From the NCBI GenBank assembly GCA_965249135.1, contig OZ252220.1, forward strand, positions 832,001-896,000: a stretch of DNA of 64,000 bases, read 5' to 3'. The stretch comes from Alphaproteobacteria bacterium. GTDB lineage: Bacteria > Pseudomonadota > Alphaproteobacteria > GCA-2746255. The notes under the pieces were generated by a model. It worked only from the letters and a program-made list of their open reading frames with translations. It was not told the DNA's origin and made no database searches. Position 1 is the stretch's first letter, and every line of letters begins with the position of its first letter. The translations under genes were made by a program, and so were the position numbers. Positions 3,508-59,217 of this stretch are shown piece after piece.

Positions 3508-4287
3508 ATGGGCCGGGGGCTCAAGATCGCGGCCGGCATTTTTGCCACGCTTGCCATCCTCACCGTCGTCGTCTTCTATGCCGGTTCGTCGATCGATTCC
3601 ATCGTCGAGAAGGGGATCGAGAAATACGGCTCGCAAATCTTGCGCACACGCGTGAGCGTCGATGCCGTGGAAATTTCCCCGCGCAGTGGCAAGGGCAGCC
3701 TGCGTGGCGTGTTCATCGGCAACCCGGCCGGCTTCGAGGCGGAAAGCGCCTTCGAACTCGGTGAAGTCACCATCGCCATCGATATGGGGTCGGTGATGGG
3801 AAATCCCATCGTCATCAAAGAGATCAGCGTGAACGCCCCCAGGCTGACCTACGAACTGAACGGGAACGCAAGCAACCTGGACGCCCTTCGGCGCAACATC
3901 GAGGCCTTTGCCGGCGGCAAGGCAAACAAGCCGAATGAGGCAGGCTCTAGGTCAGAAGGCGGCCGCAAGCTCGTCATCGAGAAACTCACGATCCGCAAGG
4001 GCACGATCCGGGTCCGCGCGGCGCTCCTGAAAGGCAAAGAGACGGAAGTCTTGTTTCCCGCCCTTGAATTCAGGAACATCGGCAAGGAACGGAACGGCAC
4101 GTCGCCGAACGAGGTCGCGGCCAAGGTGCTGGACGCCATAACTAGACAGGTGGTCATGGCGACCGCCGGCCTTGGTCTTGAGGCGGTGCACGGACTGGCC
4201 GAAGAGGGCGCCGAAGGCGTCGGTGCCATTCTCGAGGAAGGCATCGAAGGGATCGGCGAGGCGATCGAGGGCCTGTTCGGCGAGTAG
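3508..4287 (+). CDS. AsmA/DUF748-like membrane-anchored protein
   Basis: GGAGG RBS, N-terminal TM helix, IGNPAGF and SNL motifs. Confidence 0.65.
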   Translation: MGRGLKIAAGIFATLAILTVVVFYAGSSIDSIVEKGIEKYGSQILRTRVSVDAVEISPRSGKGSLRGVFIGNPAGFEAESAFELGEVTIAIDMGSVMGNPIVIKEISVNAPRLTYELNGNASNLDALRRNIEAFAGGKANKPNEAGSRSEGGRKLVIEKLTIRKGTIRVRAALLKGKETEVLFPALEFRNIGKERNGTSPNEVAAKVLDAITRQVVMATAGLGLEAVHGLAEEGAEGVGAILEEGIEGIGEAIEGLFGE

Positions 4288-55021: not shown

Positions 55022-55041
55022 CGCGGTTTTCCTCTGTGTCT

Positions 55042-55674
55042 TTAAGCTATCTTAAGATAGGGCCGTGGCGTACTAACATCCGGACTATGAGCAAGCTCAT
55101 CGCTCCATTGATGCCAACCTGGGTGTGGGTGGCGAGCAAACAATTCAAGATATGGCCCAGAACTACATGCTTCTACAAGGTCATACAATTCGTCTGGCTT
55201 TCTGCTGTGTTCACGCTTACGTGTTGACAACAAATTCGGCATGGTTCGACCCGGCTGTTTTGTGCGCGCATTCTTACCACGCATACCAAACAAAATGAGT
55301 TCAGTCACGTTACGGAAATAAAAGCCAACCCCCCGTCTATCTGGGCCGCCATCTTTTCGAATTTTAAACCAAATAAGATTCGTCTTATACGTGAAGCCCC
55401 ATCGCTTCATTACTTCAAGGCCCTCTGCAACAAGCGCATTTGGGACCCAAAGGTAGAGATGTGCAGTCGAATTAGCCAACCGAGCTATGGAAAGCTCCAG
55501 AATATCCGTTAGATTCATTGTTGAATAACGAGACAATCGCCTGTGCTCTGGAGCCATTTTTCCAGTTCGATTCGTAAATTGCCAAGGAGGATCCACCAAA
55601 ACTGTCGAAAACTTTTGTCCATTAACAAATGCAATGAGCTCATCAGCCGGCACAATCTCACTAGTCATCGACAT
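55042..55674 (-). CDS. MT-A70 family adenine DNA methyltransferase
   Basis: DPPW motif, LYLW, WGFTY, HSRKP, LELFAR; low GC. Confidence 0.92.
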   Translation of the reverse strand: MSMTSEIVPADELIAFVNGQKFSTVLVDPPWQFTNRTGKMAPEHRRLSRYSTMNLTDILELSIARLANSTAHLYLWVPNALVAEGLEVMKRWGFTYKTNLIWFKIRKDGGPDRRGVGFYFRNVTELILFGMRGKNARTKQPGRTMPNLLSTRKREHSRKPDELYDLVEACSSGPYLELFARHPHPGWHQWSDELAHSPDVSTPRPYLKIA

Positions 55675-56033
55675 ATGCCTCCTGCTTTATTCCAAAAACT
55701 GCAACGGGGCATCCCCCACCTCCCCCACCTTCAATCCTAGGCAGCAATCGACTCATATGAGTGGTTGATGAGCCATACTTTTTGCCTTTTCCAAGATCAT
55801 CGAAGATTTTCTGTAATTCATCGCAACGCGTGACTATAACTCCAACATCAATGGCCCTTAGATCGAATAAAAGCCGAAAGTTGTTTAAATCGCGATCGAA
55901 GAAAGGATCTTTGTTGTTCCACTCGACCTCAAGAGCAACTCGATTCTTAAAACAGTCAACTTTATGTGTGGGGCTTTCGTAAAGGGACTTGCGTAGCAAA
56001 ATCAGCAAGCCGCCGGTTCAAGCCCATAACTAC

Positions 56034-56219
56034 TCACTTTTTTCTGGTCAATTTGTAGGGTTGCTCGCACTCTTTTTTCGTGGGCTCGCGGTTCTGGCTT
56101 CGCGGGCGGCTGGGCGCCGGGGCCAGCATGATCCGGCGCAGCGCTTCCTCGAACTTTCCCCGTTCGACGGGGTCTCTGTCCGTTGGATCAAGTCTCGGAG
56201 TGTTGGGCTTTCGGGGCAT
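56034..56219 (-). CDS. Small basic protein at the distal end of the IS1595 element
   Basis: GGAAG RBS; 61 aa with FEEALRRIMLAP helix. Confidence 0.6.
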   Translation of the reverse strand: MPRKPNTPRLDPTDRDPVERGKFEEALRRIMLAPAPSRPRSQNREPTKKECEQPYKLTRKK

Positions 56220-56233
56220 TACTTGTCTTCCAA

Positions 56234-56848
56234 TTATGGCAACACTCCGACTAGGACGAGCGGCACCGCTGGGACACCCCGACCTTGCCGCAGTACATTC
56301 AGCAGATCGCGTTCATAGTAGGGAACGCCGCTGGACATTTCCCGCTCCAATTCCTTCATCGGCAATATTTCAATCCCAACGTCAATGATATCAGACACAC
56401 AGAAACTCAGATGCTTCACGAACAAATCGTGTGCCACGAAGACATATTTGCCGAACTGAACCTCAACAGCTACACGATCCTTCACAAAATCGGTCTGATT
56501 GTAGGACATGATCGGCACATGTCCGGCTGCTTGGATCGCCTCTTTTTGCTCATGCTCTGGACGGCCATAGATGCCGCGCAATAGTTTCTCATCATCCGTC
56601 ACCCAAAACGTGTTTCTTCGCTCGCCCCAATCCCGCGCTTCAAGCCCAGCCTTGAATGCGGAATTCATCTCCGGCGGGGAATAGAGCACCCGCCCCATCA
56701 TGGTCTTTTCCTTGGATTCCTTGGTCTTGCACACTGCGGCATCGACTTCCGCTATCACGTCCCGAACCTCTCGCCAAAGTTCGTGCCGATGAACCAACAG
56801 ATATTCCTCGCCGTTAAGGTGAGAATACCGCGCTCCGATCCGCATCAA
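56234..56848 (-). CDS. BstYI-like type II restriction endonuclease (predicted RGATCY)
   Basis: YSHLNG, KESKEKT, YNQTDFVKDRVAVEVQFGKY, EILPMKEL..EMSSG, RQGRGVPAVPLVL closely match BstYI as I remember it. Confidence 0.88.
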   Translation of the reverse strand: MMRIGARYSHLNGEEYLLVHRHELWREVRDVIAEVDAAVCKTKESKEKTMMGRVLYSPPEMNSAFKAGLEARDWGERRNTFWVTDDEKLLRGIYGRPEHEQKEAIQAAGHVPIMSYNQTDFVKDRVAVEVQFGKYVFVAHDLFVKHLSFCVSDIIDVGIEILPMKELEREMSSGVPYYERDLLNVLRQGRGVPAVPLVLVGVLP

Positions 56849-57675
56849 TGTCCGCCGTTCGGCAAGGTGGGGTCATAGATTGGCTTATTCATCGGACGGG
56901 TGCGAAGTTCACCGGCCTCAAGGGCCTTCACCCTCTTTTTCGCTATCTGCACATACTCGCCCATGACATCGCAGCCGTAGGCAAGCCGCTCATGCTTGAG
57001 TGCGGCAACGATTGTCGATCCAACGCCCATGTAGGGGTCGAACACGGCATCGCCCCGGTCTGTCATGGAAAGCACGAGGCGCTCCACCAACTCCACCGGA
57101 AACTGGCACGGATGGATTGTCTTCTCCGGGTGATTGTTCTTGACGTTCGGGAACGCCCAAACGTCGCTGGGATTCTTGCCTTTTGGGTTGCCGGACAACT
57201 TACCTGCGTTCGGCCCCTTGAAGTGCCGCTTGTTCGGGTACTTGGGCGGCACCCGAATTTGATCTAGGTGCCAAGTGTAATCATCGCCCTTTGTCCACCA
57301 GTTGATGGTTTCATAGCGCCCCGACAGGCGCTTGGTGCAGTGCAAGCCGTGTCCGAAATTCCATATAATCCGGTTGCGAAGCTTGAATCCCTGCGCGTGA
57401 AACAATGGATAGAGCAACGCATCGAGCGGCATGATCTCACCGTTCTCGACATAGTTCCCTACCTGCCAGCATATCGAGCCTTGGTCATGCAGGAGGCGGG
57501 CGCACTCGCCGATGACACGTTCCTGCGTGGCGAGGTAGATATCGAGGCTGGATTTGCCTTCGTAGGATTTGCCGAGATTGTATGGCGGCGATGTAACGAT
57601 CAGCTTGAATACCTCATCCGGCAAGGGCCGCATGAATGCGACATTGTCCTTGCAGGCGAGTACGGCCCGACTCAT
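56845..57675 (-). CDS. Beta-class N4/N6 DNA methyltransferase (likely m4C)
   Basis: TSPPYN, HPCQFP, DPYMGVGST in beta-class order. Confidence 0.92.
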   Translation of the reverse strand: MSRAVLACKDNVAFMRPLPDEVFKLIVTSPPYNLGKSYEGKSSLDIYLATQERVIGECARLLHDQGSICWQVGNYVENGEIMPLDALLYPLFHAQGFKLRNRIIWNFGHGLHCTKRLSGRYETINWWTKGDDYTWHLDQIRVPPKYPNKRHFKGPNAGKLSGNPKGKNPSDVWAFPNVKNNHPEKTIHPCQFPVELVERLVLSMTDRGDAVFDPYMGVGSTIVAALKHERLAYGCDVMGEYVQIAKKRVKALEAGELRTRPMNKPIYDPTLPNGGH

Positions 57676-58625
57676 CGTTCCTCCGACTCCGCCACCAAAT
57701 CCCTGTACCGGAGCCGCTTGCCACCGATTCCACTGGCGAGAGCCGCCATGCGGTCCAGGGTATCGACTTCGCAGTTACCCTCGTTCAGCCGGAATGCCGT
57801 CTCATCGACGTAGCGGCTCAGATGCTTTGCGGAAACGCGGTACCACGTTCCGGTGATCGAGCGCTTGAGTACGGCCCATACGCTTTCGATCCCGTTGGTA
57901 TGTACGCCGCCGTCTCGGACGTACTCCTTGGCGCTGTGATTGACCGTCTCGTGATCGTAGGGAAGTTCCTGATAGGCCGAGGCGTCGTCGGTATAAACCG
58001 TGGCGTCCGGCGCGGCATGGGATTTGACGAAGCCGATCAGGGTAGCCACGTCGGTGCGCTCGATTGGCTTGGCGGCGACCTTGCCGCCCCGTTCCCGTGC
58101 GCCTATCACAGGAGTCTTTCCGACTGGACCCCGACCGGCGCGTAGTTTCTTCTTGGAATGTTTGTTGCGCTCGCGGCCGCCGATGTAGGTCTCGTCAACC
58201 TCCACGACCCTTTCAAGGGTGAACTCTCCCCCGGCGCAGGCTTCTCGAATGCGGTGGAGCATATGCCATGCGGTGCGGTACTGGCAACCCAGTTCCTTCG
58301 AGAGTTGCATGGCGCTCACGCCCTTGCGGGCCGTCAGAACCGAGTAGATGGCGAATACCCAGTCCTGCAACGGCTTCTTGGTAGAATGCAGGCACGTCCC
58401 TGTAGTAACCGTGAAGTGATCCCGGCAAGCCTTGCACCAGTAGGCTTTCGGCTTGCTCGGCGACGGCATCCTGATCTCATCAACGCTCCCGCAATTCGGG
58501 CAGATCGGAGTACCGCCCCAGCGCACCAACTCCAACCACTCGCGGCAAGCTTTCTCGTCCGGGAACAGCCGGTAGAGTTGAGGGACACTGATGGTCTCGG
58601 CGGTTCGTTTTTTGTTCTTGCTCAT
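57672..58625 (-). CDS. IS1595 family transposase
   Basis: CPNC...CKAC Zn ribbon, HTH, EVDETYIGG, YTDD, HTNGIE, YVDETAFR. Confidence 0.95.
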   Translation of the reverse strand: MSKNKKRTAETISVPQLYRLFPDEKACREWLELVRWGGTPICPNCGSVDEIRMPSPSKPKAYWCKACRDHFTVTTGTCLHSTKKPLQDWVFAIYSVLTARKGVSAMQLSKELGCQYRTAWHMLHRIREACAGGEFTLERVVEVDETYIGGRERNKHSKKKLRAGRGPVGKTPVIGARERGGKVAAKPIERTDVATLIGFVKSHAAPDATVYTDDASAYQELPYDHETVNHSAKEYVRDGGVHTNGIESVWAVLKRSITGTWYRVSAKHLSRYVDETAFRLNEGNCEVDTLDRMAALASGIGGKRLRYRDLVAESEER

Positions 58626-59217
58626 GGGAATTCCCCTGTTGACTGCTGATTATTATATGTTAAATGAAATCAGATGTCTACAGGTTTTGCTGATTTTGCT
58701 ACATAATTCCCTTCGTAAACCGTTTCGTCGACAACGATGCTGGTTTCAAATCCTTTTTCTTTCCACCCAAGACGGTAGAAATGTCCATCTAACTTGTTGG
58801 CGATTAGCGACTTGCGTCCACCGGGTGCAAGAACATCCGTACGCATCAATTTGAAAGAGCCAAGAACCTTCACTATGTCGCTCCATTCACCTGAATGCGC
58901 CGCCGTCAGAATCGCCATTGCGTTCCGCCACTCGTGAATTGCATAAAGGCGTCTGATCTCTTTCGGGACCATTACGCCTCCTACATCCTGTTACTACAAA
59001 ACACTTTCCCACAAAATGTAGCACTTCTAAAAGTTTGGCTAAACAGATGTCTCTCGAACTAGCCATAAGACACCTATTGGAACAAATCAAGAACGTTCTA
59101 GATTTTGTTGGTATGTGGAAGATTCGGCGTCAAAGACCCGTTTTATTGCCCAAGCCGCGGCGACCTGTTAGGTATCCCCGCGGCGATTCTTCGAAAAACC
59201 TTAACTCACCTACGAAG

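Follow-up and report, generated by a model that had tools for sequence, protein, structure and literature searches.

How did one complete restriction-modification (R-M) system come to lie inside the endonuclease gene of another, and was the interrupted system singled out or struck by chance? The question arises in a 64,000-nt window of an alphaproteobacterial genome (GenBank assembly GCA_965249135.1, contig OZ252220.1, positions 832,001 to 896,000 of the forward strand), where the interval between thiE and efp holds a disrupted R-M pair with a mobile element nested in it. The original prediction, drawn from the letters of the window, held that the element had disarmed a resident R-M system and replaced its specificity. 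The features concerned, in window coordinates, are as follows.

55025..59150, no strand: strain-specific low-GC islet in the thiE-efp interval, 4.1 kb, comprising the disrupted R-M pair and the nested element
55042..55674, minus: methyltransferase of the disrupted pair, MT-A70 family, 210 aa, intact (Pfam E 2.8e-29, positions 1-171 of 172)
55661..55983, minus: C-terminal part of the split endonuclease, codons 88-191 (Pfam Endonuc-BglII E 4e-34, positions 68-163 of 163)
55976..55983, no strand: target-site duplication TTCGTAAA, left copy, 8/8 identical to 58712-58719
55984..58711, minus: IS1595-family transporter IS, 2728 bp, GC 56.5%, one full copy in the genome
55984..56008, no strand: terminal inverted repeat, transposase-distal end, 22/25 positions matching the other end
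56034..56219, minus: 61-aa backbone ORF, on the far side of the cargo slot
56234..56848, minus: cargo endonuclease, BstYI homologue, 203-204 aa (PDB, PADLOC and Pfam matches)
56845..57675, minus: cargo DNA methyltransferase, N6_N4_Mtase, 276 aa (Pfam E 2.7e-51, profile positions 2-221 of 221)
57672..58625, minus: IS1595-family transposase, 317 aa, intact (Pfam and NCBIfam profiles)
58652..58680, minus: promoter-like site (TAGACA, 17 nt, TATAAT), just inside the terminal repeat and upstream of the transposase gene
58687..58711, no strand: terminal inverted repeat, transposase end, 22/25 match to 55984-56008
58712..58719, no strand: target-site duplication TTCGTAAA, right copy, 8/8 identical to 55976-55983
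58712..58972, minus: N-terminal part of the split endonuclease, codons 1-87 (Pfam Endonuc-BglII E 2.5e-6, positions 1-62)

Structure of the inserted element

The inserted unit belongs to the transporter ISs (tIS) of the IS1595 family and is present once in the genome. Elements of this kind are described as combining a DDE transposase, 25-bp terminal inverted repeats (TIRs), an 8-bp duplication and passenger genes enclosed by the repeats (PMC5704250), and tIS as a class are stated to occur in the IS1595 and IS66 families only (TnCentral preprint, 10.1101/2021.05.26.445724). The unit studied here has a DDE transposase, imperfect TIRs of about 25 bp, an 8-bp duplication, and passenger genes within the repeats; the length, TIRs and perfect duplication first reported from the sequence were all reproduced, and in a repeat search no inverted repeat of the region was longer than the TIR pair. 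Across the 2.118-Mb genome, exact matches to the 16-nt TIR core occur at the two element ends only, and six further, unpaired matches have 3 mismatches each. The same end type (GGGA..GTAGCAAAATC..) is also present in related elements of other genomes.

The transposase matches DDE_Tnp_IS1595 (PF12762, E 4.9e-42, profile positions 2-153 of 153), an N-terminal zinc ribbon (Zn_ribbon_IS1595, PF12760, E 6.9e-10), and the NCBIfam model NF033547 transpos_IS1595 (198.8 bits; cut-off, 75). The two R-M genes come after the transposase gene and before the distal TIR; along the minus strand the order is TIR, promoter-like site, transposase, methylase, BstYI-type endonuclease, 61-aa ORF, TIR. The promoter-like site agrees with the consensus at 11/12 positions and is the best of 4 such sites, where shuffled sequence yields a mean of 3.0; it is a consensus match only. 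The 61-aa ORF has no Pfam or NCBIfam match.

A BstYI-type cassette as cargo

The predicted cargo, a full R-M pair within an IS1595 element, was borne out by profile matches to all three proteins. The methyltransferase matches PADLOC MTase_II (PDLC03230, E 2.4e-77). The endonuclease aligns with BstYI over residues 1-203 of 203 (PDB 1sdo, E 2.7e-82), a likeness that spans the entire enzyme of the BstYI system (PDB 1sdo, 1vrr, 2p0j), and matches PADLOC REase_II (PDLC03442, positions 1-203 of 203, E 8.9e-86) and Pfam Endonuc-BglII (E 2.3e-33). Its D-x8-E-x-Q stretch, the residues of which we take to be catalytic, equals that of BstYI apart from one conservative change. The cargo is a complete type II R-M pair of BstYI type with a predicted RGATCY specificity, the BstYI site being R^GATCY. 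Genome-wide observed/expected ratios for the corresponding words are 0.59 (AGATCT), 1.01 (AGATCC and GGATCT), and 0.83 (GGATCC); the four are not jointly depleted.

The transposase stop codon and the methylase ATG overlap in the sequence ATGA, and the likely endonuclease start, an ATG at 56845, has one base in common with the methylase stop codon. From these overlaps, the three genes probably form one translationally coupled operon, in which methylase would be made before endonuclease.

The disrupted MT-A70/BglII-family pair

The interrupted gene encodes a BglII-family endonuclease, and the break falls between codons 87 and 88. In-silico removal of the element and one duplication copy restores a 191-aa open frame, as first claimed, and the rejoined frame aligns without gaps across the junction to 10 full-length homologues (191-198 aa; identity 120-154 of 191) hand-picked from 120 matches listed; among those 120, homologues are 75-89% identical to the C-terminal part. 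The 3' end of the split gene overlaps the start of the MT-A70 gene by 14 nt, and an AGGAGG motif stands just 5' of the MT-A70 ATG. The methylase, which also matches PADLOC MTase_II (PDLC03221, E 1.6e-82), is intact as predicted, its profile match running almost end to end. Judged by the split, insertion of the element is likely to have inactivated the endonuclease gene. The two endonucleases had been assigned to one superfamily, and both do belong to the BglII family, with the D-x8-E-x-E of the disrupted enzyme aligning with the D-x8-E-x-Q of the cargo enzyme; the relationship is nevertheless distant (27% identity over 95 aa).

Related pairs exist elsewhere in uninterrupted form. Among 80 loci kept of 592 confirmed relatives, with MT-A70 homologues 62-79% identical, an uninterrupted full-length endonuclease homologue adjoins the methylase gene in 40; it is partial, split or divergent in 21 and absent from 19, which suggests that the same fate has been reached by other routes.

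Origin of the nested arrangement

The nest could in principle be an assembly artefact, misassembled repeat sequence having placed the element in the endonuclease gene. The genome is probably metagenome-derived, and the four public runs examined represent one sample, the only one with runs containing this stretch and probably the source of the genome, so that contig support is not independent. However, separately built contigs cross the left junction in runs X1, X2 and X3 and the right junction in X1 and X2, with 0 differences; the element is single-copy and leaves no repeat to confuse an assembler; and a perfect 8-bp duplication with a restored reading frame is unlike the product of an artefact. 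We consider misassembly extremely improbable. Bridged joints and full-length homologues spanning the rejoined junction are also the two checks on which the original prediction had been staked beforehand, and both came out in its favor.

The central claim of that prediction, a directed takeover in which elements seek resident endonuclease genes, disarm them and replace their specificity, with R-M competition as the driver and excision as the reversal, fares poorly. In its favor, the gene hit does encode an endonuclease and the neighboring methylase is intact, both endonucleases are of the BglII family, and 'RM-on-RM-type' insertions have been discussed as possibly reflecting conflict among epigenetic systems (PMC3467074). 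The distance between the two endonucleases argues against it, as do the other insertions of the same genome, which contains six more IS1595 cargo elements, 5/6 with R-M or defense cargo. None of the six lies beside a recognizable defense gene; their neighbors encode NfeD, Nfu/NifU, Usp, RsmB, acetyl-CoA synthetase and similar proteins, or have no Pfam match. What the targets share is composition. An 8-bp duplication flanks 5/6 of these elements (one of the five matching at 7/8), and target duplications with GC ≤25% make up 5/6 of those in the genome, compared with 5.1% of all genomic 8-mers, and 18/26 of those flanking related elements in other genomes. The rejoined endonuclease gene has about 3.7 times the genome-wide density of AT-rich 8-mers, holding 0.10% of all such 8-mers in 0.027% of the genome length. 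Chance, the AT-rich 8-mer preference and survival bias, rather than targeting, explain the insertion site. Under the AT-rich model, the chance of hitting this gene is about 0.1% per insertion, and with only seven elements, some bias towards such genes may exist. Of the seven, L017 alone is not flanked by a target duplication. Its surroundings are low in GC, with a second MT-A70 gene at a distance of 4.4 kb, and it may have inserted into a defense island. Reversal by precise excision, proposed as a specificity switch, found no backing either, as contigs of these runs contain no excised joint (empty site) and excision in the IS1595 family is described as possibly replicative, a mode in which the donor copy stays where it is (PMC5704250). 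Taken together, these data make directed takeover very unlikely.

A further possibility concerns where the event took place. Islet boundaries were set by blastn against same-genus thiE-efp loci; in 5/5 same-genus genomes, a gap of 14-100 bp separates the thiE match from the efp match, nothing between the two matches the islet, and none of the five has the R-M pair without the element. The islet has a GC content of 45-47%, compared with 64% in its flanks, and its ends lack repeats longer than 6 nt that would reveal an arrival route. The nest may therefore have formed in a previous host and entered between thiE and efp as one 4.1-kb piece, in which case this lineage never saw a 'resident' system disarmed; with its endonuclease gene already dead, an R-M pair could presumably enter a new host harmlessly. 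The perfect duplication and two open halves suggest a young event, and the transposases of the six other elements, 27-51% identical to one another, indicate that these elements were gained separately and that arrival in this lineage is common; neither point is decisive. We regard formation elsewhere as unlikely, and a recent insertion as plausible. The term 'resident' is relative, since the nest could predate its arrival in this lineage.

The most probable account, which we hold with considerable confidence, is that an IS1595 tIS hit an AT-rich 8-mer in the endonuclease gene of an acquired R-M pair, by chance and with survival deciding what persisted, and left an orphan methylase. The DDE transposase inserted the unit at the 8-mer and duplicated it, as the duplication shows; the 8-mer happened to fall in codons 85-87. 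The pair itself is AT-rich and horizontally acquired, and in a genome of 60-64% GC, AT-rich 8-mers are concentrated in spacers and foreign islets. Insertion into the endonuclease gene of a type II R-M system is harmless, and insertion into the methylase gene lethal; only harmless insertions would persist. The endonuclease gene had been described as the only safe place for the element. This is true within the two-gene operon, and it fails as a strategy, since it describes which insertions survive. The older pair would thereby have been reduced to an orphan methylase, the cell would have gained an R-M system of probable RGATCY specificity, and the new system should stabilize its carrier through post-segregational killing.

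Comparison with known systems

Both R-M-into-R-M insertions and IS1595 cargo elements are already in print, and this locus is a further example. The cargo of tISCpe8 and MTnSag1 consists of lincosamide-resistance and mobilization functions. Those elements resemble the present one in transposase type, TIRs, 8-bp duplication and possession of passenger genes (PMC5704250), and differ from it in that this element has a conserved 61-aa ORF and a full type II R-M operon that is apparently coupled to the gene of the transposase. R-M genes flanked by imperfect TIRs and an 8-bp target duplication have also been reported, with a Neisseria gonorrhoeae unit that additionally contains a transposase-motif gene, COG3677 (Furuta, Abe and Kobayashi, 2010; PMC2853133). 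In the passages describing those units, the transposase-like gene is judged probably inactive, an R-M gene is truncated, and the mover is left open; here, in contrast, all three genes, for transposase, methylase and endonuclease, are intact.

A precedent for the nesting comes from Helicobacter pylori, in which insertion of a Type II system has inactivated a Type III system, an event termed 'RM-on-RM-type' (Furuta and Kobayashi, 2012; PMC3467074). In both cases one R-M system is broken by another, horizontally acquired one; at the present locus a complete R-M system lies inside a gene of the other, with inactivation read from the split. The cited passages on the H. pylori case name no transposon vehicle (PMC3467074), whereas here the vehicle, its ends and the duplication are explicit. 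The interrupted gene can, in addition, be rejoined exactly. The IS1595 elements considered here are 2.4-3.7 kb long, encode one transposase and prefer AT-rich 8-mers, unlike Tn7-like transposons, which show site-specific targeting. Tn7-like transposons also carry defense systems (Benler et al., 2021; PMC8649781); they are much larger multi-gene elements with a transposase of another family.

Relatives of the element and its cassette

Near-identical copies of the element were found neither among the plasmid records, genome loci and metagenome loci searched nor as a second copy in this genome. All 485 plasmid records matching the transposase fall below 60% amino acid identity, and the best relatives reach 74% among 76 genome loci and 65% among 24 metagenome loci. 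The 8-bp duplication is present at 26 of the 76 genome loci. Homologues of the 61-aa ORF (tblastn, 31-58% identity) occur in 23 of the 76, mostly just inside the distal repeat, and are also found in cargo-free elements of 1.4 kb; none was detected by tblastn in 80 loci with a BstYI-like cassette. In each of these 80 loci, a methylase homologue lies directly upstream of the BstYI-like endonuclease, and 70/80 have no IS1595 transposase alongside, whereas the cassette studied here rides an IS.

The novelty is therefore modest, and resides in a small conserved backbone gene marking the cargo slot and in a BstYI-type cassette carried by several IS1595 lineages. A broader reading, which we offer as possible though somewhat doubtful, is that the slot between transposase and 61-aa gene makes this IS1595 clade a cross-phylum shuttle for compact defense systems, with R-M cargo stabilizing the IS. 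The cargo range would then include type II R-M pairs, methylase-HNH fusions and the candidate system PDC-S46. If so, the IS would let R-M cassettes invade genomes and occasionally knock out older R-M systems, competition between R-M systems would be carried out by transposition, and such elements would supply about a third of the DNA methyltransferase genes in this 2.1-Mb genome. Movement of entire units is illustrated by loci L207 and L208, two copies of a sister transposase-methylase-BstYI-type element that are identical at 3573/3573 positions. They occupy two sites on one chromosome, where the AT-rich duplications differ and the flanks are unrelated; as judged from these copies, R-M-carrying IS1595 units can transpose whole.

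Structure of the insertion and the interrupted gene

The 2728-bp IS1595-family cargo element at 55984–58711 (minus strand) interrupts the endonuclease gene of an MT-A70/BglII-family restriction-modification (R-M) pair and itself carries a methyltransferase and a BstYI-type endonuclease. The octamer TTCGTAAA is read at 55976–55983 and again at 58712–58719, as the target duplication; immediately inside these octamers lie inverted ends (55984–56008 and 58687–58711), identical to one another at 22 of 25 positions, which a repeat search ranked first by length among the region's inverted repeats. Exact matches to the 16-nt core of the ends occur in the 2.118-Mb genome only at the element's two ends; six further matches, each with three mismatches, have no partner. 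Scripted in silico excision of the element together with one octamer yields a 191-aa frame, the two parts of which cover positions 1–62 and 68–163 of the Pfam Endonuc-BglII profile.

The rejoined endonuclease belongs to a very common family, with 7998 of 8000 candidates scored reaching E ≤0.001, and its homologs are mostly 191–200 aa long among the 120 matches listed. Ten of these, picked by hand, align to the rejoined frame with no gap at the junction (120–154 of 191 residues identical). The left junction is crossed by contigs assembled from three public sequencing runs (X1, X2, and X3) and the right by contigs from X1 and X2, with 0 differences; all four runs derive from a single sample, from which the genome itself probably came, and no RNA run was listed among those containing the stretch. 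The original prediction of an 8-bp target duplication, inverted ends, and a 191-aa rejoined frame inside a BglII-superfamily gene is confirmed, and it had identified the parts correctly. Full-length homologs do continue across the junction, and contigs bridging both junctions argue against misassembly as far as a single sample allows this to be checked. The locus documents with unusual clarity how, in nature, one R-M system has inactivated another: vehicle, ends, duplication, and exactly restorable target are all visible.

Features of the element and the split R-M pair (all genes on the minus strand)
58680–58652, minus: promoter-like site TAGACA-17-TATAAT (11/12, consensus match only)
57672–58625, minus: intact IS1595 transposase; DDE domain (2–153/153) plus zinc ribbon; NCBIfam NF033547 well above cut-off
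56845–57675, minus: N6_N4 methyltransferase (cargo); ATG overlaps the transposase stop codon
56234–56848, minus: cargo endonuclease; likely ATG overlaps the methylase stop codon by one base
56034–56219, minus: 61-aa ORF between cargo endonuclease and distal terminal repeat; no family match
55042–55674, minus: full-length MT-A70 methylase, partner of the split gene; own AGGAGG motif 5' of its ATG

The order within the element is therefore terminal repeat, promoter-like site, transposase, methyltransferase, endonuclease, 61-aa ORF, and terminal repeat. All 203 residues of the cargo endonuclease are matched in comparison with BstYI (E 2.7e-82), as are 203/203 positions of the PADLOC REase_II profile PDLC03442. 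An attC-like site 3' of this gene (inverted repeat 56195–56205 / 56240–56250) was rejected by eye, as the order of its GTT/AAC core is unfit for attC. In the split pair, the stop codon of the endonuclease gene has a 14-nt overlap with the start of the MT-A70 methylase. The split and cargo endonucleases are distant from one another (27% identity over 95 aa); no relative of the split enzyme was found in the PDB (best E 0.63), leaving no structural guide to its specificity.

No further copies of the element were found in the genome. Close copies were likewise not found elsewhere, the best matches reaching 74% amino acid identity among 76 genome loci and 65% among 24 metagenome loci, and plasmid matches (485 records) all falling below 60%.

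Origin of the interrupted pair

GC content delimits three nested layers: the flanking chromosome (64%), the split R-M pair (45–47%), and the element (56.5%). The neighboring genes thiE and efp lie 14–100 bp apart in all five same-genus genomes compared, none of which has a match to the 4.1 kb found there in this genome. The absence of this islet from its relatives indicates that the supposedly resident R-M pair is itself a strain-specific islet of ~1.4 kb. The original description of this pair as resident is too strong. Entry of the element into the endonuclease gene before the islet reached this lineage is less likely than insertion within the lineage, but a realistic alternative. A search of the islet ends (about 55025 and 59150) found no repeats longer than 6 nt, and the 1.4-kb MT-A70/BglII-family pair in the thiE–efp spacer is without flanking repeats or a mobility gene of its own.

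Target choice

The IS1595 DDE domain is matched eight times in the genome (C1), counting the element described here; one match (C1:181474–181650) covers only part of the domain, and the element comparison covers the other seven. The six other elements are 2.4–3.7 kb long with GGG-type inverted ends, and an 8-bp duplication flanks five of them (in one of the five, 7/8 positions match). Transposases of the seven elements are just 27–51% identical to one another, which indicates seven separate arrivals as opposed to the multiplication of one element.

The original prediction read the insertion as a takeover, in which one selfish R-M system disarmed another and replaced its specificity. This reading is too strong on intent. 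None of the six other elements hit or adjoins a recognizable defense gene; their neighbors encode NfeD, a pyridine-nucleotide oxidoreductase, Nfu/NifU, Usp, a nucleotidyl transferase, an ABC auxiliary protein, RsmB, and acetyl-CoA synthetase, or are ORFs without a Pfam match. Targets are instead AT-rich: duplications with GC ≤25%, a class comprising 5.1% of all 8-mers, account for 5/6 in this genome and for 18/26 among related elements elsewhere, in flanks of 49–69% GC. The rejoined endonuclease gene makes up 0.027% of the genome's length yet contains 0.10% of these AT-rich 8-mers, a density ~3.7 times that of the genome; the chance of any one insertion falling in this gene is still small, and the case was picked for being striking. 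In a compact genome, an insertion that breaks a gene the cell requires does not survive. Disruption of the methylase gene of an active pair would be lethal to the cell, a well-established property of type II R-M systems, and the insertion is accordingly found in the endonuclease gene and not in the methylase gene. No strategy is needed to explain the insertion site, and the takeover reading is unnecessary.

Loss of the endonuclease with retention of the methylase is also common by other routes. Where a related MT-A70 gene is present (80 loci), the endonuclease gene is uninterrupted in 40, partial, split, or divergent in 21, and missing in 19. At four loci of other genomes (L042, L045, L086, and L108), a BglII-family endonuclease gene was recovered in two tblastn pieces beside an intact MT-A70 gene; the split appears to result from decay by frameshift, a different path to the state seen here.

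Reversibility and specificity

The proposal that excision could switch restriction specificity back is likewise too strong. An excised joint, linking 55983 to 58720, is absent from the contigs, which drop rare variants, and a review describes excision in the IS1595 family as possibly replicative, with the donor copy left in place (PMC5704250). Precise loss through recombination between the two octamers is a conceivable but unsupported route. The cargo system may have replaced the earlier specificity or simply have added its own.

As a separate observation, AGATCT is clearly under-represented in the whole genome (observed/expected 0.59, maximal-order Markov estimate); AGATCC and GGATCT both stand at 1.01 and other tested 6-nt palindromes at 0.79–1.05. 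Prolonged contact with a BglII-type specificity may have left this mark.

Relation to described systems

The IS1595 family was reportedly defined in a founding paper by Siguier et al. in 2009. A literature search combining IS1595 with defense systems, cargo, passenger genes, or sponge symbionts turned up no paper that treats IS1595 elements as defense carriers; Siguier et al. 2009, which lay outside the search, may list R-M passengers. That work is cited in PMC3467074 among cases of R-M genes with flanking insertion sequences, and also in PMC2853133. Transporter ISs are an accepted class, said to be limited to the IS1595 and IS66 families (10.1101/2021.05.26.445724; PMC3129680), and PMC5704250 describes cargo-carrying IS1595 elements that have 25-bp ends and 8-bp duplications. 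Furuta and colleagues reported R-M units between inverted repeats with 8-bp duplications, including one that has a transposase motif (PMC2853133); the same group named "RM-on-RM-type" insertions in later work (PMC3467074). The present case is a new example of these known kinds, combining an IS1595-family transporter IS with an R-M-into-R-M insertion.

Cargo of IS1595 elements

R-M or candidate defense cargo is present in six of the seven IS1595 cargo elements of the genome, or 5/6 when the element described here is set aside. Five of the genome's ~14 DNA-methyltransferase-like loci lie inside such elements.

IS1595 cargo elements of the genome
Window 55984–58711 (this element): methylase and BstYI-type endonuclease
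L013, C1:33972–36482: type II methylase (PDLC03215, E 9e-117) and 219-aa ORF without match
L014, C1:1281019–1283533: type II methylase and type II endonuclease (PDLC03487, E 7e-41)
L015, C1:1511352–1515017: C5 methylase, HNH endonuclease, and Vsr
L016, C1:671449–674927: candidate defense protein PDC-S46, full-length (E 1.9e-256, profile positions 7–718/719)
L017, C1:1038823–1041284: fusion of a methylase and an Mrr-like nuclease domain
L018, C1:2029855–2032211: small ORFs of unknown identity and a frameshifted transposase

L017 has good inverted ends without a target duplication and sits in a stretch of 49–58% GC; a second MT-A70 gene (C1:1045710–1046204) lies 4.4 kb away. Its surroundings are possibly a defense island, and rearrangement may have occurred at its ends.

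Cargo is less uniform outside this genome than within it. Recognizable R-M cargo occurs in 5 of 17 related cargo elements of other genomes (four methylase-HNH fusions and one SmaI-like endonuclease), and aspartyl-protease-like ORFs occur in two; the cargo of the rest has no match in Pfam or PADLOC. The protease-like ORFs, an odd IS passenger, are weak retropepsin-like matches (L128:6169–6762, E 1.5e-6; L131:6230–6667, E 8.8e-5). An apparent transposase-methylase fusion at L118 (799-aa ORF) was rejected: its frame differs from that of the transposase match, it contains no DDE domain, and its first 300 residues reflect an over-extended ORF call.

Homologs of the 61-aa ORF (31–58% identity) are present at 23 of 76 loci that encode a related transposase, in most cases immediately internal to the distal repeat and some of them in 1.4-kb elements without cargo; none was found at the 80 loci with the BstYI-type cassette. 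Its presence in transposase loci and absence from cassette loci assign the ORF to the IS backbone, with the cargo lying between this ORF and the transposase gene. The ORF appears to be a second gene of the backbone and to delimit the cargo slot on its far side.

The BstYI-type cassette itself (76–85% endonuclease identity) was identified at 80 loci of other genomes (L188–L267), in records whose labels span many phyla, among them Alpha- and Gammaproteobacteria, Dehalococcoidia, Poribacteria, Entotheonella, Binatia, and Nitrospinota. The methylase gene is directly upstream of the endonuclease at all 80 loci. At ten, an IS1595 transposase gene lies within ~2.5 kb upstream of the cassette, in the same orientation in nine; these transposases are divergent, 36–52% identical to that of the element described here, and four of the ten loci have GGG-type ends with an 8-bp duplication. 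A candidate element at L188 was discarded as a chance GC-rich match because its ends do not belong to the GGG type. The cassette apparently passes from one carrier to another.

R-M or candidate defense cargo in 6/7 elements, together with the recurrence of one cassette next to different IS1595 transposases in other phyla, suggests that defense systems are moved by small IS-sized carriers as well as by large islands, phages, and Tn7-like transposons. This wider pattern of defense cargo, slot-marking backbone gene, and cassette common to several IS lineages is the part that deserves systematic survey. Transposition of whole elements of this kind, R-M genes included, is shown directly by two copies of a transposase-methylase-BstYI-type element in another genome (L207:1237–4809 and L208:1237–4809), identical at 3573/3573 bases, which occupy two sites of one chromosome with unrelated flanks and different AT-rich duplications (GAAAAAAG and CTTTTTTT).
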